A stretch of DNA of 43,803 bases from a phage. Made by a program: the position numbers and the translations under genes. Below the pieces are notes generated by a model that saw only the letters and a list, made by a program, of their open reading frames with translations, made no database searches and was not told the DNA's origin. This document shows positions 1,883 through 20,205 of the stretch, one piece after another. How positions within the stretch are numbered: the stretch's first letter is position 1; every line of letters starts with the position of its first letter. Where the stretch lies: assembly GCA_018167155.1 (NCBI GenBank), contig GCA_018167155.1_4332.1; one strand, written 5' to 3'.

Positions 1883-2082
1883 TTCTCCTGTTTACCAAGT
1901 CGCTTAGGTGAGCAGATAGTGCGTACCTCTGAATCGATGGGCTTGTCGCCCTGAAACAGGAAGTGCGCGTTCTCTGCGGCGCGTGCCGCTGACTGGCACG
2001 CCTCCATCGAGTAAAACGTTTCTGACGCCGCTAGTTGCATCTGGCCTGCGGATAGTACCCAGATAAAAAGGATGCTGGTCAT
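1879..2082 (-). CDS. Hypothetical small protein with hydrophobic N-terminus
   Basis: 67 aa ORF tiled between the two paralogs with 4-nt overlaps on both sides. Confidence 0.45.
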   Translation of the reverse strand: MTSILFIWVLSAGQMQLAASETFYSMEACQSAARAAENAHFLFQGDKPIDSEVRTICSPKRLGKQEK

Positions 2083-2585
2083 TCAACTCTCCCGCACGCA
2101 CGACACACAACATAATCCTCGTCAGACAACACCCAATCGTGCTCGCATTCCTGAGTATCGTTTTTCGGTTTATATTCCTTGTCGTCCCACTCACGTTTAC
2201 AACATTTAGAGCAAAGCTCACTACCAGGAACGTTGTTCGGATTGCCTTCGCTGAGAAACAACCCAGGCATAATAATCCAAGAGTGCTCGCATTCCTGAGT
2301 ATCTTCCTTACGGCAACCGGATTGCTCAGGCCCGTGCCCACCTACTACGTAGCTCTCCCCTTTAGGTAAAGGACCGCCCCGCCCTGTTACGCGGCCAAAG
2401 TCTTCATTCATCAACTTTATTGTCTCCTGCAACTCAGCCACCAGTGCCGAAGCATCACGTAACTGGTTCTTAAGTGACAGCACCTCATGGGCCAGGTCTT
2501 CGCACTGTTGCTTGTATGGGTTGTTACTTACCTGCTGCCGTAGCTGGTCAATCAGGTATTCGAATACTTCGTTTTTGTTACTCAT
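2079..2585 (-). CDS. Cys-rich hypothetical protein, paralog B (two copies of the QEC-H-W module)
   Basis: 168 aa; N-terminal coiled coil, then SGCRKEDTQECEHSW and DTQECEHDW repeats and a C-terminal CRACG. First gene after the leftward promoter at about 2616-2644. Confidence 0.55.
   Translation of the reverse strand: MSNKNEVFEYLIDQLRQQVSNNPYKQQCEDLAHEVLSLKNQLRDASALVAELQETIKLMNEDFGRVTGRGGPLPKGESYVVGGHGPEQSGCRKEDTQECEHSWIIMPGLFLSEGNPNNVPGSELCSKCCKREWDDKEYKPKNDTQECEHDWVLSDEDYVVCRACGRVE
2148..2303. repeat. Two exact 21-bp direct repeats (GTGCTCGCATTCCTGAGTATC) inside paralog B
   Basis: Copies at 2148-2168 and 2283-2303; a related copy sits near 1561-1580 in paralog A. Confidence 0.7.
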
Positions 2586-2615
2586 CTCTGTCTTTCCTCT
2601 CGTTTGTGTAAATGA

Positions 2616-2644
2616 ATAGTAGCCTATTATATCTTAGTGTGCAA
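2616..2644 (-). promoter_or_regulatory. Sigma70-like promoter (minus-strand TTGCAC-N17-TACTAT) with embedded AATAG-N4-CTATT palindrome
   Basis: Plus-strand gtgcaa at 2639-2644 and atagta at 2616-2621 with 17-nt spacing; palindrome AATAGTAGCCTATT at 2615-2628; 30 nt upstream of the start at 2585. Confidence 0.6.
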
Positions 2645-2791
2645 GTAAATTTTATTGGTGTTTGTATTGTTGCATCTCCTGCAATAGTCGCTTTGATTGT
2701 TGCGTTTGGTGAAATAGAACAAAAATGATACGCTGCTGGGTAGCAGCGTAAGTCACTCAGTAAAATCCCAAACTATTGTTACAATATAACA

Positions 2792-2977
2792 TCACACTTC
2801 TGGTGGCTCTGGTAACGGCATCCAGTGTGTGATATCACCATGATATAAACTCTTTGCGGGCCCCCAGTAGCCATCTGAATTAACACGCATAACCTCACAG
2901 CCAACAAAACCATCAGTTACAAGAACGTATTCATAAGGCTCTGGCATCCGCTGACTACACTTAACCCACTCACTCAT
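2792..2977 (-). CDS. DUF551-family phage protein
   Basis: 61 aa with W...RMPE...THWMPLPEPP, the signature I recognise for DUF551; SD GAGGTGA upstream. Confidence 0.6.
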   Translation of the reverse strand: MSEWVKCSQRMPEPYEYVLVTDGFVGCEVMRVNSDGYWGPAKSLYHGDITHWMPLPEPPEV

Positions 2978-2980
2978 AAA

Positions 2981-3124
2981 TCACCTCGTATTCATCGCAT
3001 ACTGCACACCAGCTTTCCACGCCCGCCACGCGAGACGCGTCTTAACGTTCAGGTACTCTTTCTTTGAACCCTTGTTAACAGGCAGACCCTCGACGACGGC
3101 CCACCGTTCGAATGCTTCTCTCAT
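2981..3124 (-). CDS. Hypothetical small protein (about 47 aa; hand-called, below track cutoff)
   Basis: ATG overlaps the upstream stop as ATGA and its stop lies 3 nt before the DUF551 start; reads MREAFERWAVVEGLPVNKGSKKEYLNVKTRLAWRAWKAGVQYAMNTR. Confidence 0.35.
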   Translation of the reverse strand: MREAFERWAVVEGLPVNKGSKKEYLNVKTRLAWRAWKAGVQYAMNTR

Positions 3125-3396
3125 ATGCGCGTCTCCTTCTTATCATTTACATGCACCCAAAACTCACCACCAGCCCAACACCACAGAAGCCACTCAGTTC
3201 GGCGCACCCAGCCATAGTCCTTTCTTGCGCTAATCGGATAAACGTCTTTGCAAAAATAATACCCTGTACTAAGAAACTCAGGGTCGCGCGTCGCGGTGCG
3301 CCACATGTTGTAAAACTGTTCAAGTCCGGCGCCACGGCGCAATACCTGTATTTTATGCAGGGAACTGGAAACATAATTAAGTTCGTTATTATTCAC
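3121..3396 (-). CDS. Hypothetical protein
   Basis: ORF track 3121..3432; a GTG at about 3396 preceded by AGGGAGG is the likelier start. Confidence 0.45.
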   Translation of the reverse strand: MNNNELNYVSSSLHKIQVLRRGAGLEQFYNMWRTATRDPEFLSTGYYFCKDVYPISARKDYGWVRRTEWLLWCWAGGEFWVHVNDKKETRI

Positions 3397-3628
3397 GGCA
3401 ACCTCCCTCAGAGTCGTCGGCACTCGCATCATGATTCGATGCCGTTGTGTGTACCTTCGCCTCGGCTTTAGTTACTGGCACTTTGTAATGTCCTACCTTA
3501 ATCCACCAGCCATCGTTACAGGAGTCCAGCATATCAAAAACATCACCAACATTTACGCCTATGCTTTCCAGAGTATCGTTAGCTGTTTCGTAGGTAACGG
3601 TGTTATCTGTAATTATGATTTGCATCAC
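3389..3628 (-). CDS. Hypothetical protein
   Basis: 79 aa ORF, co-directional and tightly packed with its neighbours. Confidence 0.5.
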   Translation of the reverse strand: MMQIIITDNTVTYETANDTLESIGVNVGDVFDMLDSCNDGWWIKVGHYKVPVTKAEAKVHTTASNHDASADDSEGGCRE

Positions 3629-3822
3629 TTCACCCCTTTGAATTTAAAATTGTTGCCGATGAGTTCTAAATCGGATGGCTTGCGATACGCTATCCATGAA
3701 CCTGTAACAGTTTTAACAGGCAAGAATCCTTTAAATTCAGATTCAATATTAATAGGCTTGCTGACAACCTGAACTAAAAGCCCTGTACCTATATCCCTGG
3801 CCAACTGACCCTTCTTAAACAT
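3625..3822 (-). CDS. Hypothetical protein (first gene of the leftward operon)
   Basis: ORF track 3625..3831; ATG at 3822 preceded by GAGGAGTGAGGG; promoter immediately upstream. Confidence 0.5.
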   Translation of the reverse strand: MFKKGQLARDIGTGLLVQVVSKPINIESEFKGFLPVKTVTGSWIAYRKPSDLELIGNNFKFKGVK

Positions 3823-3856
3823 AACCCTCACTCCTCTGTCTCGTTCCGATAAGTGA

Positions 3857-3885
3857 ATAGTATCCTATTATGTTGGGGTGTGCAA
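3857..3885 (-). promoter_or_regulatory. Sigma70-like promoter (TTGCAC-N17-TACTAT) with AATAG-N4-CTATT palindrome
   Basis: Plus-strand gtgcaa 3880-3885 and atagta 3857-3862; palindrome AATAGTATCCTATT at 3856-3869. Confidence 0.6.
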
Positions 3886-4266
3886 GAGATTCATTGAAAA
3901 TGGTTACGTTGCCGTTGTGGATTCTTTATGGGAGGTTGTGCCTTTATTCTTATTACTTGGTAACTAAAGGGCAGGCCTTAAGCCTGCCCAATAATCGTTA
4001 CATTTTTACGGTCGCGAATCTATGGCACATTAAGAAAATCAGATACTTAAGAGATATGCTGCCGATGTGAATAGAGCTTGCCCAGGGCAACCGGAGATAC
4101 TTAGGAAGGAAAGTTACGACAATTCTTATGTTCAGTAAGCCTGTGTTTAACCCTTTGCTTGACGCACGGGTTAAACATTCTTACAAGGTGAACAAGAATC
4201 AAAGTAACTAAGATATAGAAGCACCTTAAACGAAGATTTTCATAATGTCAATAGGTGCGATTATGT

Positions 4267-7029: not shown

Positions 7030-7056
7030 TAAAAAGAAAGGGGCGTTAAGCCCCTT
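7030..7056. terminator. Hairpin terminator between convergent genes
   Basis: AGGGGC-GTTAA-GCCCCT stem-loop; on the minus strand it is followed by TTTCTTTTT (terminates the XRE gene). Confidence 0.5.
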
Positions 7057-7261
7057 CACCGAACGCCAGCCACTTGGCGTCTACTTCCAGCACTTCCGCC
7101 AGTTTAAACAGCGTTGCCGGGCGGACGTCCTGAGTTACACCGAGCGCAAGTTGGTTAATTGCGCCCTGGGAAACACCAGCCAGGACAGCCAAACGGCGCT
7201 GGGAGATGCCGAGTTCTTTACGGCGTTGTTCTACACGGATGCCTAGTTCAGATGGTTGCAT
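7046..7261 (-). CDS. XRE-family (Cro/CI-type) helix-turn-helix transcriptional regulator
   Basis: 71 aa; LGISQRRLAVLAGVSQGAINQLALG is a classic HTH_3 motif. The only leftward gene inside the rightward operon; SD AAGGAG upstream of the ATG. Confidence 0.75.
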   Translation of the reverse strand: MQPSELGIRVEQRRKELGISQRRLAVLAGVSQGAINQLALGVTQDVRPATLFKLAEVLEVDAKWLAFGEGA

Positions 7262-7281
7262 GTCAATTACTCCTTAGTTAG

Positions 7282-7354
7282 TTGATATGTGAATAGTACC
7301 ATATTAATTATTTTATAAAAGCACATTGACATGTGAATAGTTCGCTATTATAGT
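7282..7354. promoter_or_regulatory. Divergent control region with two copies of the AATAG-N4-CTATT operator-like palindrome
   Basis: Copy 1 AATAGTACCATATT at 7292-7305; copy 2 AATAGTTCGCTATT at 7336-7349 inside TTGACA(7326-7331)-N17-TATAGT(7349-7354), which drives the + gene at 7386. A minus-strand TACTAT over copy 1 may serve the XRE gene. Confidence 0.55.
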
Positions 7355-7385
7355 TAGTCCATACCAAACGAGAGGAGAGAAACAG

Positions 7386-10935: not shown

Positions 10936-11409
10936 ATGGAACATATAAAAGATTTTCTTAGTTATAACCGAGAAACCGGAATATTCACATGGATACAACC
11001 TACGTACAGACGAGGAAAACCCGGAGACATCGCAGGATGCATCAATAGTAGCGGATACTGGCGAATACCTTATATGGGTAGATATTACATGGCCCACAGG
11101 CTTGCTTGGTTTTTCGAGTACGGTGAATGGCCCGAGGGGCCTCTTGACCACATAAACCGTGACAGGTTAGACAATAGGATTTCTAACCTAAGGAAAGCAA
11201 CCACCGCAGATAATGTGCGAAACGCTAAAAATAAGGGAGCGAGAACGGGAGTTAAGGGAGTAGTTAAAAACGGCAACCGATTTTATGGGCGGGTACATTT
11301 TAACTACAAAAGTTATAACGCGGGCAGCTACGGAACTCTTGAAGAAGCAGAAAGCGCTGTAAAGAAATTAAGAGAAAAACTGCATAAGGAATTTTATTGC
11401 CATGACTAG
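10936..11409 (+). CDS. HNH homing endonuclease with AP2-like DNA-binding domain (paralog 1)
   Basis: ORF track 10912..11409; ATG at 10936. HINRDRLDNRISNLR is an HNH motif; GVKGV...GNRFYGRV...EEA is AP2-like. Confidence 0.7.
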   Translation: MEHIKDFLSYNRETGIFTWIQPTYRRGKPGDIAGCINSSGYWRIPYMGRYYMAHRLAWFFEYGEWPEGPLDHINRDRLDNRISNLRKATTADNVRNAKNKGARTGVKGVVKNGNRFYGRVHFNYKSYNAGSYGTLEEAESAVKKLREKLHKEFYCHD

Positions 11410-13600
11410 TTTATTATACCTGGATACCGAGACATTCTCCGAAGCAGACTTAAAGAAAGTCGGGTCGTATGCGTATGCGGAGCACCCAACGACAGAGGTT
11501 ATAATTTGTACGTATGCCGTTGACGACGGTCCTGTAGAAGTATGGGATTGCACTTCCGAACCAGTAATGCCAATAAGCCTACGCGTGGCGCTCCGTAATG
11601 TTATGCGTGGGCGTATGAAAATCGTGGGCCATAACTTTTTAATGTTCGACCGCCTAATCATGAAACATTGCTGGGGCTTTGATATTCCGGTAAGCAACAC
11701 CATCGATACTATGATTTGGGCGTTTCGTCACGCGCTGCCGGGATCACTTGATGCGTTGTGCGAAGTGCTTGGCGTGTCCGCCGACAATGCGAAAGATAAA
11801 CGCGGCAAGGCGCTGATTCAGCGTTTCTCTAAACCGACACCGAAGAACTACAAAATCCGCCGTTACACCGCCGAAACACACCCGGATGAGTGGGCGCTGT
11901 TCATCAAGTACGCCGTTAGTGACATCACTGCGATGCGTGAAGTCTTCCATAAGCTGCCACGTTGGGGTAACTCCGAGTTCGAAGACCGGGTACTGGAACT
12001 GGACCAGTTAATCAATGACCGTGGGTTTAAGGTCGACGTTGCACTGGCGGAAGCTGCGATTGAAGCAGTGGAGAAGCACAAGGCACAGTTACAGGAAGAA
12101 GCCCAACGAAAATACGGCGGCTCACTTACTGGTAAGGACTTTCTGCCGATTCTGCGTGAACTTGCGCCGGCGCACCGAATCCACAACGCACAGAAGTCGA
12201 CGCTGAATGACCTGTTGGCGGATGATGATTTACCGGACGATGCTCGAACGATTATCGAAATGCGCCTGGGGGCCGCGTCCACTGCGTCAACGAAATATAA
12301 CCCATTGCTGCTGGGCCGCTCGTCTGACGACCGCCGCCGTGGTTGCTTACAGTACGGTGGGGCGAAACGTACTCTGCGGTGGGCGGGTAAAGGCTTCCAG
12401 CCGCAGAACCTGGCGCGCGGGTACTATCACGATGATGAACTGGATAAAGGCATTTCAGCGTTACTTAAAGGCCGCGCGCATCGCCGTTTCGATGTCGCTA
12501 AGCTAACAGCATCAACGGTGCGAAGCTGCATCATACCGGAAGCTGGACATAAGTTTGTCGTTGCCGATTACTCTAACGTCGAAGGCCGTGGGCTTGCGTG
12601 GCTGGCGGGCGAAGAAACCGCGCTTGATACGTTCCGCGCCGGACTGGATATTTATTGCGTAACCGCAGGTAAGATGTTTGGCATGGACCCAGATGATATT
12701 AAGAAAAACTTTAAGGAAATCAGACAGATAGGTAAGGCTTGCGAGCTTGGCCTCGGCTATGAAGGCGGCGTCGGAGCGTTCGTTACGTTTGCTAAAAACT
12801 TAGGTCTTGACCTTATTGAGATGGCAAAAACAATGGACGGTACTTTCCCTGATCATATATGGGCGGCTACCGCACGTGGTTATGAATGGGCGCGTATCCA
12901 GGAAGCAAAGCGACCACCGCATCCTGGTGAAAAGGACGACCGACCATCGTATATTCTGGACAAGAAAGTGTGGCGCACATGCGACGCAATCAAGCGTATG
13001 TGGCGTGAGTCACACCCTGAAACAGTAGCGTTCTGGCGCGACCTTAAAGACGGAATTTTAGCCGCTGTGCGTAATCCTGGTCGTGAATTTTGGGCGGGAG
13101 CACACTTGCGCAGGAATGGCGAGCGCGCTATCCGAATATGGAGAACAGTAGAATTTGATTCATCCGGTAGGAAGGTTCCTGGTTGGTGGTTGTGCGTGGA
13201 GTTGCCGTCGGGCCGTATCCTTTCGTATCCGGGAATCGGAGTTAGCGTGACAAAGGAAACAGACGAAGACGGACGGGTAAACACGAATGTGCGAATCAAG
13301 TACCAAGGTGAAAACCAGTTAACCCGCCAATGGACTACCCTGTACACCCACGGCGGTAAAGCCTGTGAAAACATTGTTCAGGCGCTGTGCCGTGATTTAC
13401 TCGCATATGCGATGGTTAATGTTGAGGGTGGCGGGTATCCCATCGTGCTTTCGGTACACGATGAACTGGTATGTGAAACTCCGGATACGCCCGAGTACAC
13501 GGTGGCTGAACTGGAAAAATTAATGTGCGCGTTGCCTGAGTGGGCGGAGGGGTTCCCTCTTGTAGCGGAAGGTGCGGAGATGAAGCGCTATGCTAAGTAA
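11402..13600 (+). CDS. DNA polymerase, family A, with N-terminal 3'-5' exonuclease domain
   Basis: 732 aa; LYLDTETF (exo I), DYSNVEGRGLAWLAGE (motif A), RQIGKACELGLGYEGG (motif B), VLSVHDELV (motif C). Confidence 0.85.
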   Translation: MTSLLYLDTETFSEADLKKVGSYAYAEHPTTEVIICTYAVDDGPVEVWDCTSEPVMPISLRVALRNVMRGRMKIVGHNFLMFDRLIMKHCWGFDIPVSNTIDTMIWAFRHALPGSLDALCEVLGVSADNAKDKRGKALIQRFSKPTPKNYKIRRYTAETHPDEWALFIKYAVSDITAMREVFHKLPRWGNSEFEDRVLELDQLINDRGFKVDVALAEAAIEAVEKHKAQLQEEAQRKYGGSLTGKDFLPILRELAPAHRIHNAQKSTLNDLLADDDLPDDARTIIEMRLGAASTASTKYNPLLLGRSSDDRRRGCLQYGGAKRTLRWAGKGFQPQNLARGYYHDDELDKGISALLKGRAHRRFDVAKLTASTVRSCIIPEAGHKFVVADYSNVEGRGLAWLAGEETALDTFRAGLDIYCVTAGKMFGMDPDDIKKNFKEIRQIGKACELGLGYEGGVGAFVTFAKNLGLDLIEMAKTMDGTFPDHIWAATARGYEWARIQEAKRPPHPGEKDDRPSYILDKKVWRTCDAIKRMWRESHPETVAFWRDLKDGILAAVRNPGREFWAGAHLRRNGERAIRIWRTVEFDSSGRKVPGWWLCVELPSGRILSYPGIGVSVTKETDEDGRVNTNVRIKYQGENQLTRQWTTLYTHGGKACENIVQALCRDLLAYAMVNVEGGGYPIVLSVHDELVCETPDTPEYTVAELEKLMCALPEWAEGFPLVAEGAEMKRYAK

Positions 13601-13807: not shown

Positions 13808-13998
13808 GCAACAAACCATTTAGTAAGAAACTAGCCGCGTTAGTGGATATGCCAGAATGGGAATTTATCATGGTAATGGGAGATGGGTTCTTTAGTGACG
13901 TTTGTGCAGGATGTACGCACAAAGGTGTTTACTACTCAGAACACGACATCTACCAAGCGTACTTCCTGCGTAACCCGGATGCGGAGCCGTTGTTATGA
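13804..13998 (+). CDS. Hypothetical protein
   Basis: ORF track 13795..13998; ATG at 13804. Confidence 0.45.
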   Translation: MSNKPFSKKLAALVDMPEWEFIMVMGDGFFSDVCAGCTHKGVYYSEHDIYQAYFLRNPDAEPLL

Positions 13999-14492
13999 AA
14001 GCACCAAGTGACGATATAAAAGATTTTCTGTCATACGACCCGGATACCGGGATATTTAAATGGGTCAAGCACAGATGCCAGACCGCGAAACCTGGAGATG
14101 TTGTTACCTACAAGGACCGTAAAGGGTACATATTGTTAGGATGGAATAGGGTGTATTACCGCGCACACAGGCTGGCGTGGTGGTGGGTATACGGAGAGAT
14201 GCCAACTAAGCAAATAGACCATATTAACGGCATACGGGACGATAACCGGATTTGTAACCTACGGCTTGCGGATGAATTTCAACAGAACCATAACCGCAAG
14301 ACCCCAGTTACGAACACCAGCGGCGTGAAAGGGGTTAACTGTAGTAAGCCTCATAATGCTTGGTGTGCTCGAGTTGCTTTTAAAGGTACACGCTATCAGA
14401 TTGGGTATTTCCAGAACCTAAATGAAGCAGAGGAATCGCTGAGAGAATTTAGGGCAAAACTGCACGGAGAGTTTTGCAACCATGGCGACTAA
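13995..14492 (+). CDS. HNH homing endonuclease with AP2-like domain (paralog 2)
   Basis: 165 aa; shares DIKDFLSYD...TGIF.W, AHRLAWW..YGE.P, DHINGIRDDNRICNLR and GVKGV...EEA with the paralog at 10936. Confidence 0.7.
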   Translation: MKAPSDDIKDFLSYDPDTGIFKWVKHRCQTAKPGDVVTYKDRKGYILLGWNRVYYRAHRLAWWWVYGEMPTKQIDHINGIRDDNRICNLRLADEFQQNHNRKTPVTNTSGVKGVNCSKPHNAWCARVAFKGTRYQIGYFQNLNEAEESLREFRAKLHGEFCNHGD

Positions 14493-14796
14493 AGAGGGCC
14501 GCGTACAGAAATACGCAAAAGAGCGATTCGAGGCCATTGGTGGCCTCGTTCGTAAACTTTCCTACGAAAACAGACGCGCAGCGATGGATTTGTTAGTGGT
14601 CCTGCCCGGCGGCATCATCTGGTTCGTCGAGATTAAGAAAGACGAAAACACGAAGCCAGACCCGCACCAGCTACGGGAACATGAGAGATTCCGGAAACGT
14701 GGTGCGAATGTTTTTGTCGTTGGTTCGTTTAAACAGGTTGACACCCTAATAGCGAACTATTATAGTCAGCCCTACACCAACAATATAAGGAATTGA
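14482..14796 (+). CDS. VRR-NUC domain nuclease
   Basis: 104 aa; DLLVVLPGGIIWFVEIKK...QLREHERFRKRGANVFVV matches the VRR-NUC PD-(D/E)XK pattern. Confidence 0.6.
   Translation: MATKEGRVQKYAKERFEAIGGLVRKLSYENRRAAMDLLVVLPGGIIWFVEIKKDENTKPDPHQLREHERFRKRGANVFVVGSFKQVDTLIANYYSQPYTNNIRN
14738..14766 (+). promoter_or_regulatory. Sigma70-like promoter TTGACA-N17-TATAGT with AATAG-N4-CTATT palindrome, inside the 3' end of the VRR-NUC gene
   Basis: TTGACA 14738-14743, TATAGT 14761-14766, palindrome AATAGCGAACTATT at about 14748-14761. Confidence 0.55.
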
Positions 14797-14799
14797 GAA

Positions 14800-14991
14800 A
14801 TGAAACACGAATATGACCGCAAACCAGCACGTGACATTGTACCAGGTGACATGATTTTCAACGTTAAAACACGTCGGCCTGTTGCCGTAGATACGGTGTA
14901 CGTAGAGTCGAATGGTAAACTGGTTATTGAAGACGTAACTGGCAACGTTACGGCGTTCGGGCGTAAAGAGTTAGTTCTGGTGCTGAAATGA
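14800..14991 (+). CDS. Hypothetical protein
   Basis: 63 aa ORF with SD AAGGAATTGAG. Confidence 0.5.
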   Translation: MKHEYDRKPARDIVPGDMIFNVKTRRPVAVDTVYVESNGKLVIEDVTGNVTAFGRKELVLVLK

Positions 14992-15671
14992 TTGTCTGGT
15001 CATTGTTTGACGGTTCGGGCCTTATGGCCCAACCGTGGGCGGAAGCGGGCCATACTTGCTATTGTTTCAACTACGACGGTGCCGACCACGGCGACTACGC
15101 ACGACTGGGTGCAAAAGTTGAACACGACAATATCCACTATATAAACGCGTGGATTGATAATAAGTTCGACTTCGAGGTTGCGCCGGATATTATTTTCGCG
15201 TTCCCTCCGTGCACAGATTTAGCCGTTAGCGGTGCGGCGCATTTTGAAACGAAGCGGAAGAAGAATCCAACGTTCCAAGTAGAGGCCGTGATTACATGCA
15301 AAGTGGCGGCGCGTCTGGCTAAAAAGTACAACGTACCTTATATGATTGAGAACCCGGTTAGTGTTCTTTCGTCTTTATGGCGTAAGCCGGATTATGTATT
15401 CAACCCGTATGAATACGGTGGTTATTTACCCGAAGACGACACGCATCCAATGTTCCCTGAATACATAAAACCACGGGACGCGTACCCTAAAAAGACATGT
15501 CTTTGGACGGGTAATGGTTTCGTAATGCCAGTTAAGTCATGTGTTGCTTCCAGAGACGGGTACTCTGACCAACACAATAAATTAGGCGGTAAATCGGTGA
15601 GGACAAAAACAATACGCAGCCTTACCCCGCGCGGTTTCGCAAAAGCAGTTTATGAGGCCAATCATGTCTAA
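14988..15671 (+). CDS. DNA (cytosine-5)-methyltransferase-like protein, short form
   Basis: LFDGSG (motif I-like), FAFPPCTDLAVSGAA (PC motif IV) and MIENPVSV (ENV motif VI). Confidence 0.55.
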   Translation: MIVWSLFDGSGLMAQPWAEAGHTCYCFNYDGADHGDYARLGAKVEHDNIHYINAWIDNKFDFEVAPDIIFAFPPCTDLAVSGAAHFETKRKKNPTFQVEAVITCKVAARLAKKYNVPYMIENPVSVLSSLWRKPDYVFNPYEYGGYLPEDDTHPMFPEYIKPRDAYPKKTCLWTGNGFVMPVKSCVASRDGYSDQHNKLGGKSVRTKTIRSLTPRGFAKAVYEANHV

Positions 15672-17088
15672 GTTTCAAAGGCGCGAATACCAGAAAATAA
15701 TGACGTCGTTTATGCTACAGCACCCACGTTGCAATATCTGGTGCGGTATGGGCGGCGGCAAGACCTCGTCGACAATGTGGGTGCTCAACCGACTGTTTCG
15801 CAACGGGCAGCTTACGGACGACGACAGGGTATTAATCCTCGCCCCGCTGCGCGTTGCGTCCGGCACATGGCCCGCAGAACAAGAGAAATGGCGATTCCCA
15901 TGCCTGAGTGTCGTCGATGCAACGGGTTCAGAGAAGCGCCGCATCGCGGCACTGGAGTCGGATGCTAACGTGGTGTGCACGAACTACGAAGTTATCGAAT
16001 GGCTGATTGACTACTACGGCAAAGACGACTGGCCTTTTACGGTTATTGTTGCCGATGAAAGCACGAAACTTAAATCATTCCGCAGCCGTTCAGGTGGTAG
16101 CAAGAGAGCGAAGGCGCTTAGTAAAGTGGCGTTCGGTAAGGTTAAGCGTTTCATCAACCTTACTGGCACCCCGTCGCCGAACGGCCTCAAGGACTTGTGG
16201 GGGCAGAACTGGTTTATCGACGCTGGCGAGCGCCTCGGGTCTTCATACACGGCATTCACCGACCGATGGTTTAACTCGGTACAGAAAGGCAAATCGGCTA
16301 TGGCGCGTGAGTATCATGCGCGCCCGGGTGCGGATACTGAGATTCATCAGAAGATGAAAGACATCAGTCTCACGATTGACGCTGCCGAGTGGTTTGGGTG
16401 TGAAGCACCGATTATTGTACCGGTTGAAATCGACCTGCCGAAGAAAGCACGTCAGGCGTACATCGATATGGAGGAAAAGTTATTCGCGGAACTGGAGAGC
16501 GGGGAAGTTGAAGCGGCTAACGCCGCGGCGAAGACCTCAAAATGCTTGCAGATTGCATCTGGTGCCGTATATGTGACGGGTGAAGACGGGGAAGCAACGA
16601 AAGACTGGGAGAAAGTGCACGACACGAAACTGGATGCGCTCGAGTCAATTGTTGAGGAGCTACAAGGTGCGCCGTTGCTTGTGGCTTATCAGTTTAAGCA
16701 TGAACTGGAGCGCATCCTTAAGCGATTCCCGCAGGCGCAGGCGTTCGCCAAAGGTGCGAAGGGTAATAAGCAGATGGAAGCGTGGAACCGTGGCGAAATC
16801 GAAATCTTATGCGTGCACCCGGCGTCAGCCGGGCATGGTTTGAATTTACAGGACGGCGGGCATCATCTGGCGTTTATTTCGCAAGGCTGGAATCTTGAAC
16901 ACTATTTGCAGGTTGTCGAGCGAATAGGCCCGGTCCGCCAGAAACAGGCAGGACACGAGCGGCCGGTGTTCCTGTACCACATCGTTGCTAAAGACACGCT
17001 GGACGAGGTTGTTGCCGCGCGTACAGACGAGAAGAAATCGGTCCAGGAAGAATTGCTTAATTATATGAAGAGAAGAGGTAAGAAATGA
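15664..17088 (+). CDS. SNF2-family helicase
   Basis: ORF track 15652..17088; ATG at 15664. Walker A CGMGGGKT, VIVADESTKLK, LTGTPSPNGLKDLW and C-terminal GHGLNLQDGGHHLAF helicase motifs. Confidence 0.75.
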   Translation: MSKFQRREYQKIMTSFMLQHPRCNIWCGMGGGKTSSTMWVLNRLFRNGQLTDDDRVLILAPLRVASGTWPAEQEKWRFPCLSVVDATGSEKRRIAALESDANVVCTNYEVIEWLIDYYGKDDWPFTVIVADESTKLKSFRSRSGGSKRAKALSKVAFGKVKRFINLTGTPSPNGLKDLWGQNWFIDAGERLGSSYTAFTDRWFNSVQKGKSAMAREYHARPGADTEIHQKMKDISLTIDAAEWFGCEAPIIVPVEIDLPKKARQAYIDMEEKLFAELESGEVEAANAAAKTSKCLQIASGAVYVTGEDGEATKDWEKVHDTKLDALESIVEELQGAPLLVAYQFKHELERILKRFPQAQAFAKGAKGNKQMEAWNRGEIEILCVHPASAGHGLNLQDGGHHLAFISQGWNLEHYLQVVERIGPVRQKQAGHERPVFLYHIVAKDTLDEVVAARTDEKKSVQEELLNYMKRRGKK

Positions 17089-17223
17089 ACATCATAGCCC
17101 CGATTCCCGCATTGCAAAAACGTATCAAGGAACTCGAAGAGGAGGTTCTACGACTACGACAACAGAGGGATGCCGCTAATGCACAACTGGCGTTTGTACT
17201 GGAGAAGCTATCAGAAGAGTAGA
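17086..17223 (+). CDS. Hypothetical small coiled-coil protein (hand-called, 45 aa)
   Basis: ATGA-coupled to the helicase stop; reads MNIIAPIPALQKRIKELEEEVLRLRQQRDAANAQLAFVLEKLSEE. Confidence 0.3.
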
Positions 17224-17253
17224 GAAAAGGCCCCGTTTGGGGCCTTAGTTTTA
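17224..17253. terminator. Bidirectional terminator between convergent operons
   Basis: AAAAGGCCCC-GTTT-GGGGCCTT followed by TAGTTTTA; flanked by T/A runs in both orientations. Confidence 0.65.
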
Positions 17254-20205
17254 TTTATCTTCTAGTGCTGCCAGCCTCTTCTCGAACTCGCGCATCTTCT
17301 TACGCTGATAGGCAATCTCGATGAAGAACATCTGGTCCGCCCTAACCCCCCATCTGCCGCCGGGAGGGGATACTTGTACAGTCTGGCCATCTTCATCAAT
17401 ATCATACGCAGCTTCAATTGAGTCGTAGCACAAGAAAGCATATTTACAATCGGTAGAATCTTTCTCCATAAGCCCATGGTTGACCAATATGTCTCGCACA
17501 TCTTGGGCTATCACACCGAAGTGTATCCTTGCAGTGTCACCCTTGATTGCTAGGCTTTCAAGCCACTTAAAAGATATTACATGTATATCCTCCCATGCGG
17601 TAAGGAGTTGTCCCTCAATTTCCTCTTTGTTCGTCTTAAGTGTACCATCAGACGTGTTTATCGTACCGGTGGCCGCGTACACCGTAGTCCACCTATTACC
17701 TGCCGAACCTAAAGACACTTGCGAGTCTAAGTAAGGAAGAAAATTGTTGTATGAGTAGAAGCCTCCTGACGCATACATAATAGCCCTGTTAGGCGTTGCA
17801 TGGTTTGCCCCGTACAGTTGCAGCAACGCACCATCGGAACTGGATGCACCATCACCACCGCTAACTATCAGTCTTTGACCCGATGGGGTTTTAGTGGGGA
17901 CTGTTTTTGAAATCAGCCCGTAATCACCATCAAACCGTGCGCGCACGGCAGACTGTTGTGTACCATCGTATTCCAGCCCCGTTACATGCAGGGAGTACAC
18001 GCTTACATCATTGTCAAACGTTAAAGGTGCTTCTACATGGCGTACACCATCTACCCCCATGGCGACAGGTATTGTACGGTTAGGAGTTGCTCCGTATTTG
18101 AAATCACGTGATACGTACGGGTGGTCTTCAATCTTTATCCGGTAGCTATATAAGTCAGCCGGATGCCCATCATGTTTGTACCATAACTTCGCACTGTTAT
18201 CCCCTATGCTCCAGGGAGAGAAGAAGTCTTCCCCACCAAAGATATAGTACAACCAGCCATCTTTAACACAGACCGAGCCGGCGCCGACAGCAGAGTTAAC
18301 GATATGACCCTGGTATATTTGGTCGGTAATATTAAACCACTGAACATCATCTAAAGATGAAGGCCAGGACGACACATTAACTTTGCACATAAAGGTCCTC
18401 GGATACGAACCTTCATAGCGGCTGTCCTGCTCGCCACCTTCCCACTCACCAAAGGCACGTTCTGTACCAAAGATGTAGAGATAGTCACCTACTTTAGCGA
18501 ACGGAAGATTGGAGCGATGTACATTGTTCGGAAATCGCAAGTAGCTCCAGTTTTGCCCAGAATCGGTGCTCATCGCCAGTGTAGAGCCAGGGGAAGTAGG
18601 TAATGTGCCGCGTGTGGTAAGGTATAACACACCACCATAACTTTTCACGCACGGCTCAGAAGCGTTATCAGCGTATGCCTGAGCGACAGTGCGACGAACG
18701 AATACGCCAGGATTGTCATACACGTTACTAAAATACAAGACACCGAGACGCCTAGGGGACACATCGCCGTTGTGATAGCCGACAGCGATAGTGTAGTTAA
18801 CATCATCTATAACCGCAAAACTATGTGTCTCCGTGACACACAAATCAGCGTTAGTGGAGTATGCTACCCCAGGCAATTCAGTAATTTCCCACGGGCTGTC
18901 CCAGAATCGCGTTGCGAAGTTCCAGGTAACACCCGCATTGTTTATGGTGGAACTCGCCGGGGTTGAGAGCGTAACAGTGAACGTATTTCGGTTAATTATA
19001 GACGAAACCGTCATATTACCCGATACGCCAGTTGCCGATGTATTAGAGAAGTTAACCGCATCTCCTGCTTTTAGGCCATGATTTTCTATGACAATGGTAG
19101 CAGTAGTGGAGCCAGAACTAATAGTTATTCCGCCGGTTGGGTGTCTAAAATACGGCATTGGGCGTGACCAAAGTTCTGCCTTCTTCATCCGCGTATTAGA
19201 TAAGTAGCGGGTTTCTATAACTGCATATAATCGGTTGCCGCATGTACCCATGCTCATGCAGTGGTAGTTAACTCTGTCCGTAGAAACACTAGCATTATAG
19301 TCAGCATGGATTGGAGTCAACCACTCAGGCATTGACCAAGTCTGCCCGTCGTCTCCAGAGCGAACCCAAGCTACATGTAAGTTTTGAACACCATGTCGTT
19401 CGCCCGCCATAAACGGGGCGTAAATAACATGGTCGTAGACGAAAGTTTTATCCTGCGTCCATGCGTTGTAGAACGGGGTATCCGTCACCTTAGTTAGTGA
19501 GCCGTTAAAGAAGCCATCAGCTACATAAGTAAGCGGTTGCCCGGCTACGCGCTCGTAAACGAATGCAGCATTCTTAAATTTACTAATGTCAGGTAATTGG
19601 GAAACTTTATAAGTCAAACCCCTGCCGTCTATAATCCAATTGTTGGGGGAAGCTGCTAATACATTAAAAATAGATTGAGTATCATCAGTTACGCCGTCGC
19701 CCACGGCGCCCCATGCGCGCGGGTCGTATTCGTCCTTCCATCGCGCCACATGTAAATCTGGGTACAGAATTGCACCGTTTACATCAGATATTTGCTGCCG
19801 CAGTATGACCGACCCGACAGGCTGCCACGCCCCATCTGCCACGCCACCGGTGGACTGCGGAGAAGATGACGCTGGGATAATTTTTGGTAGAGCACCCAAC
19901 CAATAGTACCAATCCCCGTCACCGCCAGAGGACGACGACCACAAAACTGCGGTGTTTCGGTCGTTAGCGGATAGTGTACCGCCTGACGTGAAATCAAAAT
20001 CTGCCAGTTTAAAACCAGCATCACGCAACACGGCAGGTAACGTCTTCTGGGTCTGTCCAGTAACCTGATTTGTCGCGTAATCAATATCGGCACCACCGGC
20101 GACACCGCCGGATTTGCCAGTGATAACCTCGGCCTCGAAAATCTGATGTTTCTTGGCGGTTTGTAAATCCGCCAGGCTTAAAACGTCACCGCATCCGCTT
20201 GACAT
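17251..20205 (-). CDS. Tailspike / tail fibre with Asp-box glycosidase-like domain and C-terminal intramolecular chaperone (peptidase S74-like) domain
   Basis: 984 aa; Asp-boxes SGDDGQTW and STDSGQNW; C-terminal roughly 130 aa resemble the auto-cleaving chaperone domain of endosialidases and L-shaped tail fibres; SD AAGAGGA. Confidence 0.7.
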   Translation of the reverse strand: MSSGCGDVLSLADLQTAKKHQIFEAEVITGKSGGVAGGADIDYATNQVTGQTQKTLPAVLRDAGFKLADFDFTSGGTLSANDRNTAVLWSSSSGGDGDWYYWLGALPKIIPASSSPQSTGGVADGAWQPVGSVILRQQISDVNGAILYPDLHVARWKDEYDPRAWGAVGDGVTDDTQSIFNVLAASPNNWIIDGRGLTYKVSQLPDISKFKNAAFVYERVAGQPLTYVADGFFNGSLTKVTDTPFYNAWTQDKTFVYDHVIYAPFMAGERHGVQNLHVAWVRSGDDGQTWSMPEWLTPIHADYNASVSTDRVNYHCMSMGTCGNRLYAVIETRYLSNTRMKKAELWSRPMPYFRHPTGGITISSGSTTATIVIENHGLKAGDAVNFSNTSATGVSGNMTVSSIINRNTFTVTLSTPASSTINNAGVTWNFATRFWDSPWEITELPGVAYSTNADLCVTETHSFAVIDDVNYTIAVGYHNGDVSPRRLGVLYFSNVYDNPGVFVRRTVAQAYADNASEPCVKSYGGVLYLTTRGTLPTSPGSTLAMSTDSGQNWSYLRFPNNVHRSNLPFAKVGDYLYIFGTERAFGEWEGGEQDSRYEGSYPRTFMCKVNVSSWPSSLDDVQWFNITDQIYQGHIVNSAVGAGSVCVKDGWLYYIFGGEDFFSPWSIGDNSAKLWYKHDGHPADLYSYRIKIEDHPYVSRDFKYGATPNRTIPVAMGVDGVRHVEAPLTFDNDVSVYSLHVTGLEYDGTQQSAVRARFDGDYGLISKTVPTKTPSGQRLIVSGGDGASSSDGALLQLYGANHATPNRAIMYASGGFYSYNNFLPYLDSQVSLGSAGNRWTTVYAATGTINTSDGTLKTNKEEIEGQLLTAWEDIHVISFKWLESLAIKGDTARIHFGVIAQDVRDILVNHGLMEKDSTDCKYAFLCYDSIEAAYDIDEDGQTVQVSPPGGRWGVRADQMFFIEIAYQRKKMREFEKRLAALEDK

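Follow-up and report, generated by a model that had tools for sequence, protein, structure and literature searches.

The region at positions 14482-17088 of the phage contig GCA_018167155.1_4332.1 (NCBI GenBank assembly GCA_018167155.1) encodes a VRR-NUC nuclease, a short protein of 227 amino acids that resembles cytosine-C5 methyltransferases, and an SNF2 helicase. The complete contig of 43,803 nucleotides is called the window in the following. The explanation that we consider likely for the region as a whole is a recombination core with an inserted, accessory 'Dcm-like' C5-methyltransferase, co-transcribed from a conserved promoter. A preliminary description, made from the sequence alone, had named the three genes with correct coordinates. 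All of them were recovered (from the list of open reading frames (ORFs) and by matches to PDB entry 4QBN, phrog_757 and SNF2-rel_dom), together with two small genes, orf63 and orf45, that the description had overlooked. For the coordinates of all features see Table 1.

Genomic context of the methyltransferase gene

Judged by the gene order of related phages, the methyltransferase gene is an accessory, horizontally mobile and optional gene in the Guernseyvirinae. The Jerseyviruses AG11 and PVP-SE2 have VRR-NUC, orf63 and SNF2 in this order, with no methyltransferase in the slot. At least 80% of the region was covered in just 50 of the 462 matching phage records. In the Kagunavirus K1G, the equivalent slot between orf63 and SNF2 (positions 1302-2126 of locus L017) is filled by ORF31, a C5-methyltransferase of 274 amino acids with a PF00145 score of 62.8 bits and the canonical motifs FAGIGG, PPCQPFS, HKRER and GNAIVP. 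ORF31 thus occupies the same slot in a sister Kagunavirus and is also a short C5-methyltransferase. However, with its canonical motifs it passes the PF00145 model and has no detectable similarity to the protein of the window (BLASTP E-value 0.44), which makes it a non-orthologous replacement. The occurrence of two unrelated C5-methyltransferases in a single slot speaks for selection on cytosine methylation as such at this place. From these comparisons the slot at 14988-15671 appears as a hot spot of methyltransferase gain, loss and replacement.

Homologues of the gene were found in very different surroundings. In Salmonella phage SSE121 (148 kb) they are located amid DnaB/PIF1 replication genes, in phage Phagiculus between the genes for the major tail protein and the tail chaperone, and in one 70-kb phage amid small ORFs. 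In the Drexlerviridae they belong to the early genes and are located near a DUF3987 helicase, not near SNF2. In Dhillonvirus JL1 (positions 2080-4196 of locus L018) the methyltransferase gene lies directly downstream of a 67% identical SNF2 gene, which is the mirror image of the order in the window. A survey of 80 loci from IMG/VR yielded 25 with a homologue of the SNF2 protein of the window within 5 kb. Among these SNF2-linked loci the methyltransferase gene was upstream of SNF2 in 11, as in the window, and immediately downstream, as in Dhillonvirus, in 14 (L051-L074). The remaining 55 of the 80 loci had no such homologue within this distance. Hypermodification genes beside the methyltransferase gene were found in none of the contexts examined.

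The methyltransferase gene clearly works without SNF2 or VRR-NUC partners. It is worth noting that, as far as gene order can tell, it has come to lie next to SNF2 repeatedly, in two lineages whose PolA-VRR-NUC-SNF2 modules are homologous. The preliminary description had taken the three genes for a single cluster of DNA modification and remodeling. This does not agree with a gene that is absent in AG11 and PVP-SE2, replaced in K1G and free of SNF2 and VRR-NUC in 55 of 80 loci. Since the methyltransferase gene is accessory, the 'cluster' is a repair module with an inserted methylase.

Sequence, motifs and predicted fold of the methyltransferase

Alignments support the assignment of the 227-residue protein to the homologues of C5-cytosine methyltransferases: its catalytic cysteine, its ENP motif and the motif I that binds S-adenosylmethionine (SAM) are intact. 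It matches phrog_757 over residues 1-226 with an E-value of 4.7e-88. Motif I reads F7-D-G9-S-G11, the catalytic motif IV P73-P-C75-T and motif VI E121-N-P. Among 81 representatives of the family with 35-60% identity, F72-P73-x-C75, E121-N122-P123, K168 and T170 are invariant or nearly so; F7-x-G9-S-G11 is also kept among the close relatives of the protein. An hhalign comparison with the single sequence of E. coli Dcm gave a probability of 1.2%, which is meaningless as a score and was used for motif mapping alone; it pairs P73-P-C75-T and E121-N-P with PCQ and ENV of Dcm. The predicted structure has the catalytic-domain fold of C5-methyltransferases and resembles DNMT3. We regard the fold and the family homology as unambiguous, and the resemblance to cytosine methyltransferases noted in the preliminary description is borne out by the catalytic residues, the fold and the similarity to a phage protein described below.

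Other parts of the protein are unusual. The tripeptide K168-K169-T170 is found in place of the QxRxR motif (motif VIII), and the C-terminal RGFAKAV, a degenerate motif X, merely resembles RGYGNAI of K1G. The subclade has an asparagine instead of the usual acidic residue of motif II. No match to the protein was found in NCBIfam or PADLOC, nor among PDB sequences with either the single sequence or a profile of 29 sequences.

The Dcm-like family is large. It comprises more than 7800 clusters at 90% identity and 1298 representatives at 50% identity, nearly all of them 210-260 residues long, and it occurs in 1523 phage records, chiefly Escherichia, Klebsiella and Salmonella phages of several unrelated families. 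PF00145 recognizes merely 3 of the 81 family members at an E-value of 0.01 or below. The Pfam model for C5-methyltransferases misses a family that is found in some 1500 phage genomes and counts thousands of clusters from metagenomes, and annotation of phage methylomes will overlook or mislabel it. Ten longer members were scanned for fusion domains, which yielded just an inserted HNH domain and a weak match to a dimerization domain. The short methyltransferase fold was also observed inside two giant proteins of uncultured phages in BFVD, A0A6J5SE15 (1397 residues) and A0A6J5NPY6 (1126 residues). The 1397-residue entry is the one with a helicase annotation ('Helicase/UvrB, N-terminal').

An assayed homologue

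Phages of the BASEL collection carry the family annotation 'Dcm-like C5 cytosine methyltransferase'. Over its full length, the protein of the window is 58% identical (E-value 2e-98) to bas06_0055 of phage KarlJaspers (Bas06), the product of a 711-bp gene with 236 residues. The genome of phage K42 is 95.4% identical to that of KarlJaspers (bioRxiv 10.1101/2023.08.16.553469). In that study all four K42 escapers of the retron Ec86 had lesions in or just upstream of the 711-bp dcm gene, and expression of K42 dcm was toxic only if the retron was present. Liquid chromatography coupled to mass spectrometry (LC-MS) showed a high level of 5-methylcytosine (5mC) in the retron's msDNA (multicopy single-stranded DNA) from cells expressing K42 dcm, and the product co-eluted with a 5mC standard. 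The mutant C82A/E128A/K175A/K176A gave neither toxicity nor 5mC (bioRxiv 10.1101/2023.08.16.553469). These four residues align to C75, E121, K168 and K169 of the protein studied here, which by analogy we infer to be an active, 5mC-forming enzyme.

Promoter and palindrome in the nuclease gene

The last codons of the nuclease gene contain a sigma-70-type promoter, the sole match to 11 of 12 consensus positions between 11000 and 18000. The records of AG11 and PVP-SE2 annotate a promoter at the equivalent place. It remains in position in relatives in which the stop codon of the nuclease gene moves and in those in which an extra gene sits downstream. Three Guernseyvirinae loci from IMG/VR (L024, L025 and L090) have such an extra gene of about 300 bp directly after the promoter and before orf63. 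Downstream of this gene come a GC hairpin and a second copy of the orf63 ribosome-binding region; the extra gene is a further small insertion at this promoter.

The promoter spacer holds a perfect 16-bp palindrome. Its pattern, [G/T]AATAG-N4-CTATT[A/C] with up to two mismatches, occurs at 11 sites in the window (2614, 3855, 7291, 7335, 10180, 14747, 27354, 36160, 36251, 38128 and 43772) versus 1.3 expected, a number reached in none of 100 shuffles. Eight of the 11 copies belong to two promoter types on both strands, and at a distance of 25-40 nt each is followed by an ORF with a Shine-Dalgarno sequence. The first type, TTGACA-N3-[G/T]AATAG-N4-CTATTATAGT, is found at 7335, 10180 and 14747, the second, TTGCA[C/G]A-N8-TAATAGG-N-TACTATTC, at 2614, 3855, 27354, 36251 and 38128. 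The other three copies (7291, 36160 and 43772) are more degenerate.

The arms of the palindrome in the nuclease gene are unchanged in 14 of 15 relatives. The central four nucleotides and the bases adjoining the -35 element vary among the 15, and the encoded amino acids change along with them. Within the promoter, seven of 10 third-codon positions are invariant, compared with 20 of 85 in the remainder of the nuclease gene (Fisher p = 0.005), and the conserved promoter codons include the rare isoleucine codon ATA. This pattern fits a protein-binding dyad, that is, a putative operator. The preliminary description had proposed an operator-bearing promoter at the 3' end of the nuclease gene: both the promoter and the palindrome are real and conserved, and the operator is still putative. 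A candidate for a global regulator of the promoters of this phage is an HTH_3 protein of 71 residues encoded at 7046-7261 on the minus strand, with TAATAGCGAACTATTA as its putative target. Its gene adjoins a divergent region (7262-7385) with two copies of the palindrome.

It is improbable in our view that the promoter-like site and the palindrome are by-products of the coding sequence for the nuclease C-terminus, with the downstream genes expressed only by read-through from upstream. The site does lie inside a coding region, promoter-like matches at the threshold of the scan are not enriched between 11000 and 18000 (9 observed versus 7.4 expected), and 18 of 29 promoter positions are invariant overall, which is no higher a share than the 149 of 256 elsewhere in the nuclease gene. 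All of this counts against a functional promoter, and the palindrome may furthermore belong to the promoter itself instead of being an operator. By-products of coding would, however, not account for a match of this quality that is unique in the interval, for the preference for synonymous positions among the invariant ones, rare ATA codon included, for ten further copies of the palindrome that are mostly intergenic and for the most part promoter-like, or for the persistence of the promoter where the stop codon has moved or a gene has been inserted. According to the explanation that we prefer, the host-type sigma-70 promoter would transcribe orf63, the methyltransferase gene, SNF2 and orf45, and its dyad-symmetric site would be common to most promoters of the genome. 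From its distribution and conservation, the palindrome would function as an operator.

The recombination core

Comparison with methyltransferase-free relatives points to VRR-NUC, orf63 and SNF2 as the conserved core. The nuclease, which gave no Pfam family at an E-value of 0.1 or below, VRR-NUC (PF08774) included, is about 88% identical (E-value 1e-51) to PDB entry 4QBN, the saNUC protein of Salmonella phage SETP3. The alignment shows that the PD-(D/E)xK residues D36 and E50-x-K52 are retained. A second match in the PDB is 4QBO (E-value 1e-5), and PHROGs (phrog_93 and phrog_5702) assigns the protein to endonuclease/Holliday-junction-resolvase families. The saNUC protein is a dimeric VRR-Nuc protein with a fold like that of archaeal Hjc, and it cuts a mobile four-way junction symmetrically (PMC4103454). 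In view of this homology and of junction cutting by saNUC, the protein is rightly called a 'VRR-NUC nuclease', and 'junction resolvase' describes its function best; it is predicted to be a dimeric Holliday-junction resolvase. Both proteins share the catalytic D/E/K residues, and both genes follow a DNA polymerase gene. The protein of the window differs by a C-terminal extension of nine residues (region 14767-14796). The gene is nine codons longer than in its relatives because the usual TAG stop codon reads CAG here.

The SNF2 protein matches phrog_62 with an E-value of 1.5e-168. In Pfam, the N-lobe gave 46.9 bits with SNF2-rel_dom (cut-off 24.9), and the C-lobe gave 20.0 bits with Helicase_C, slightly below the cut-off of 23.5; we assign the protein to the SNF2 family on both lobes. 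A GAGG motif 6 nt upstream of the ATG at 15664 makes this the more likely start of translation, in preference to 15652. This start overlaps the stop codon of the methyltransferase gene by 8 nt and would give 474 residues; relatives annotate the gene with 1425 bp. Comparison with the defence helicases DrmD, ZorD and DpdE in PADLOC and NCBIfam gave only 13-51 bits against cut-offs of 950-1500, the matches being confined to the generic ATPase core, and no partner genes of DISARM, Zorya or Dpd are present. The third component, orf63, is predicted by modeling to be a small β-barrel similar to EF-P domain I, KOW or Tudor domains.

The pair of SNF2 and VRR-NUC is kept across Guernseyvirinae and Dhillonvirus with identities of 67% for SNF2, 66% for PolA and 40% for VRR-NUC. 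From this conserved linkage, both proteins most likely act jointly on branched DNA. SNF2 would serve as a double-stranded DNA translocase that, together with the VRR-NUC resolvase, would migrate and cut branched intermediates of replication and recombination and thereby make concatemers packageable. The idea that methylation marks the phage DNA for packaging, also contained in the preliminary description, found no support.

Proposed role of the methyltransferase

Based on the motifs and on the assayed homologue we propose the following function for the inserted gene. Its product, a member of the 'Dcm-like' family of phages, would act as a minimal DNA cytosine-C5 methyltransferase that depends on SAM. 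Cys75 would attack C6 of a flipped cytosine and Glu121 of the ENP motif would protonate N3. Lys168 and Lys169 would stand in for the QxRxR motif, and SAM held by motif I would be the methyl donor. The reaction would yield 5-methylcytosine in the DNA of the phage and in that of the host. The most likely benefit would be protection against cytosine-sensitive restriction, and the cost would be exposure to methylation-sensing defences, for instance the retron Ec86 or the type IV enzymes (Mcr-type).

An orphan methyltransferase in a phage is usually expected to protect from cytosine-sensitive restriction. Such an anti-restriction role is plausible for the 227-residue protein and fits a mobile, optional and replaceable gene. 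The sole consequence documented for the Dcm-like family is a cost, the triggering of retron Ec86. In a transcriptome study of the Kagunavirus K1B4, the C5-methylase gene was among the late-peaking transcripts. Over the whole window CCWGG has an observed/expected ratio of 0.74, and CCGG, GCGC, CGCG and GGCC occur as often as expected. Since these sites are near expectation, no target of the methyltransferase can be inferred from site avoidance. Other sites are depleted in the window: GATC is nearly absent with 13 sites versus about 151 expected (observed/expected 0.09), and AAGCTT (1 versus 12), CAGCTG (1 versus 10) and GCATGC (0 versus 5) are rare as well. This depletion suggests avoidance of restriction by loss of sites, or avoidance of Dam, MutH or SeqA.

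Several points weigh against the proposed explanation. PF00145 gives the protein 15.9 bits over residues 3-101 only, below the gathering cut-off of 22. In the alignment neither QxRxR nor a canonical target recognition domain (TRD), motif IX or the GNxVP form of motif X is recognizable. Activity is deduced from one preprint about a homologue with 58% identity. In this preprint the CCWGG specificity of K42 Dcm was assumed by analogy with the host enzyme, and a mutation of the msDNA site is its sole support (bioRxiv 10.1101/2023.08.16.553469). The literature that we searched for methylation in Guernseyvirinae or Kagunavirus gave annotation-level mentions only, and in the BASEL study methyltransferase genes of this kind were not linked in any simple way to resistance to restriction. 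For the nuclease, the preparation of saNUC was only weakly active in vitro (PMC4103454).

A bolder interpretation, which we consider rather unlikely, is that the 'Dcm-like' proteins form a TRD-less, minimal class of C5-methyltransferases. This class would not be specific for CCWGG; it could be very relaxed or directed to single-stranded or hairpin DNA, and it would work with a translocase in some lineages. The suggested translocase partnership derives from the adjacency to SNF2 in two genera, the translational coupling found here and the presence of the fold in a helicase-annotated giant protein of an uncultured phage. Substrates could then be replication intermediates or retron msDNA, for example, and the partnership would be a parallel in prokaryotic viruses to the remodeler-assisted cytosine methylation by DNMT5 and DDM1. 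A search of the literature on TRD-less cytosine methyltransferases found nothing specific.

It is unlikely that the group which the protein transfers is different from methyl, such as a carboxymethyl group from carboxy-SAM (Cx-SAM) as in CmoX, or that the protein acts on single-stranded DNA, hairpin DNA or RNA instead of on duplex phage DNA. The only substrate demonstrated for a homologue is indeed the stem-loop of retron msDNA, and the lack of a canonical TRD would be compatible with such a substrate, but the product of the homologue co-elutes with the 5mC standard and hypermodification genes do not adjoin the gene in the contexts examined. Carboxymethylation of the CmoX type was considered and set aside.

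A catalytically dead or repurposed protein, for example a SAM- or DNA-binding decoy against host defences, is very unlikely. Its sub-threshold Pfam score, the degenerate motifs VIII and X and the asparagine in motif II could be read in this way. The catalytic cysteine and the ENP motif are, however, strongly conserved across the whole family, and the assayed homologue is active with the same asparagine and the same degenerate motifs, its effect being abolished by mutation of C82, E128, K175 and K176.

We rejected as highly improbable, on account of the methyltransferase-free relatives and the context survey of 80 loci, an integrated, phage-borne restriction-modification or DISARM-like unit, in which the methyltransferase would mark phage DNA and SNF2 and the nuclease would attack unmarked DNA of the host or of competitors: the genes are adjacent and translationally coupled, SNF2 weakly matches DrmD, ZorD and DpdE, two lineages have the methyltransferase gene right next to a homologous SNF2 gene, each on a different side, and the 1397-residue BFVD protein combines the fold with a helicase annotation, but AG11 and PVP-SE2 keep VRR-NUC, orf63 and SNF2 without any methyltransferase, 55 of the 80 methyltransferase loci are without this SNF2 within 5 kb, the crystallized nuclease homologue is a junction resolvase and not a sequence-specific restriction enzyme, and the defence-helicase scores of 32-51 bits in PADLOC/NCBIfam (cut-offs 950-1500) come without other DISARM, Zorya or Dpd components.

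For the minimal C5-methyltransferase that we propose, a practical consequence follows from the triggering of retron Ec86 by its family: the presence or absence of the gene should predict how sensitive therapeutic K1 phages are to Ec86 and Mcr-type enzymes. This sensitivity would be a cost that offsets any protection from restriction. For the window alone the significance is small, its contents being publicly annotated already.

Phage identity and gene layout

By its best matches, the window belongs to a Kagunavirus-like siphophage of the Guernseyvirinae, and the region is the downstream portion of its replication/recombination gene block. All best matches of the 2.6-kb region are Guernseyvirinae, either Kagunavirus (E. 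coli, Raoultella) or Jerseyvirus (Salmonella). The nucleotide identity to the Escherichia phages SZH-1, UTEC10 and JSSK01 and to the Raoultella phage RP180 is 88-90%. Records of sister phages annotate the genes as 'VRR-NUC domain protein / Holliday junction resolvase', 'DNA cytosine methyltransferase' and 'DNA helicase'; the finding therefore belongs to a well-sampled phage lineage. Public records of sister phages already contain this gene order, the structure of the nuclease, the promoter and the label 'DNA cytosine methyltransferase'.

Table 1. Features of the replication/recombination block and its downstream unit in the window.
Feature	Position	Strand	Evidence and remarks
Family A DNA polymerase	11402-13600	+	ORF list; followed by small ORFs and then the HNH endonuclease
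HNH homing-type endonuclease	13995-14492	+	HNH_3, E-value 2e-12; phrog_99; overlaps the start of the nuclease gene
VRR-NUC nuclease, 104 residues	14482-14796	+	Homology to PDB 4QBN; phrog_93, phrog_5702
Sigma-70-type promoter, TTGACA-17 nt-TATAGT	14738-14766	+	11 of 12 consensus positions; in the last codons of the nuclease gene
Perfect 16-bp palindrome TAATAG-CGAA-CTATTA, putative operator	14747-14762		In the promoter spacer, overlapping the -10 region
orf63, 63 residues, ORFan confined to Guernseyvirinae; first gene 3' of the promoter	14800-14991	+	
Short 'Dcm-like' C5-methyltransferase, 227 residues	14988-15671	+	phrog_757
SNF2-family ATPase/translocase, 478 residues from the first ATG	15652-17088	+	SNF2-rel_dom; phrog_62
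orf45, small coiled-coil protein of 45 residues, last gene of the unit	17085-17222	+	phrog_5915
GC-rich hairpin terminator	17227-17246		8-bp stem with 6 GC pairs, then a T run

Stop and start codons overlap in ATGA at 14988 (orf63 and methyltransferase) and at 17085 (SNF2 and orf45). The overlaps indicate translational coupling of orf63, the methyltransferase gene, SNF2 and orf45 in a single unit, with the hairpin at its end. This terminator separates the plus-strand unit from a convergent tailspike gene on the minus strand, and in the record of PVP-SE2 terminators on both strands are annotated at the equivalent place. The convergent gene (17251-20205, minus strand) encodes 984 residues; its length and position match the annotation of the endo-N-acetylneuraminidase of JSSK01, the tailspike endosialidase for the K1 capsule. 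The phage is therefore probably specific for the K1 capsule. Upstream of the nuclease gene, the HNH endonuclease is missing from the equivalent position in JSSK01, AG11 and K1G. This comparison makes it a mobile insertion that does not belong to the repair module; it separates the nuclease gene from the polymerase block.

Comparison with known systems

The closest characterized relative of the methyltransferase is the Dcm of K42 and KarlJaspers. It belongs to the same family and has the same architecture (236 versus 227 residues), with the equivalent cysteine, ENP glutamate and lysine pair and a DNMT3-like predicted fold. In contrast to the gene of the window, which is located between orf63 and SNF2 in a member of the Guernseyvirinae, its gene is found among small early genes of Drexlerviridae. 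Compared with the canonical C5-methyltransferases M.HhaI, M.HaeIII and E. coli Dcm (PF00145), the protein is about 100 residues shorter and is without the canonical TRD and motif IX. KKT instead of QxRxR, the degenerate motif X and a PF00145 score below threshold are further differences. With the catalytic domains of DNMT3A and DNMT3B it shares 14% identity, which implies no evolutionary closeness. DNMT3 enzymes form an oligomer with DNMT3L and bear N-terminal chromatin-reading domains.

The recombination core may be compared with RuvAB-RuvC, where a translocase gene is likewise paired with the gene of a junction resolvase. The SNF2 and VRR-NUC proteins are, however, unrelated to RuvAB and RuvC, and it is their conserved linkage that suggests a similar cooperation.

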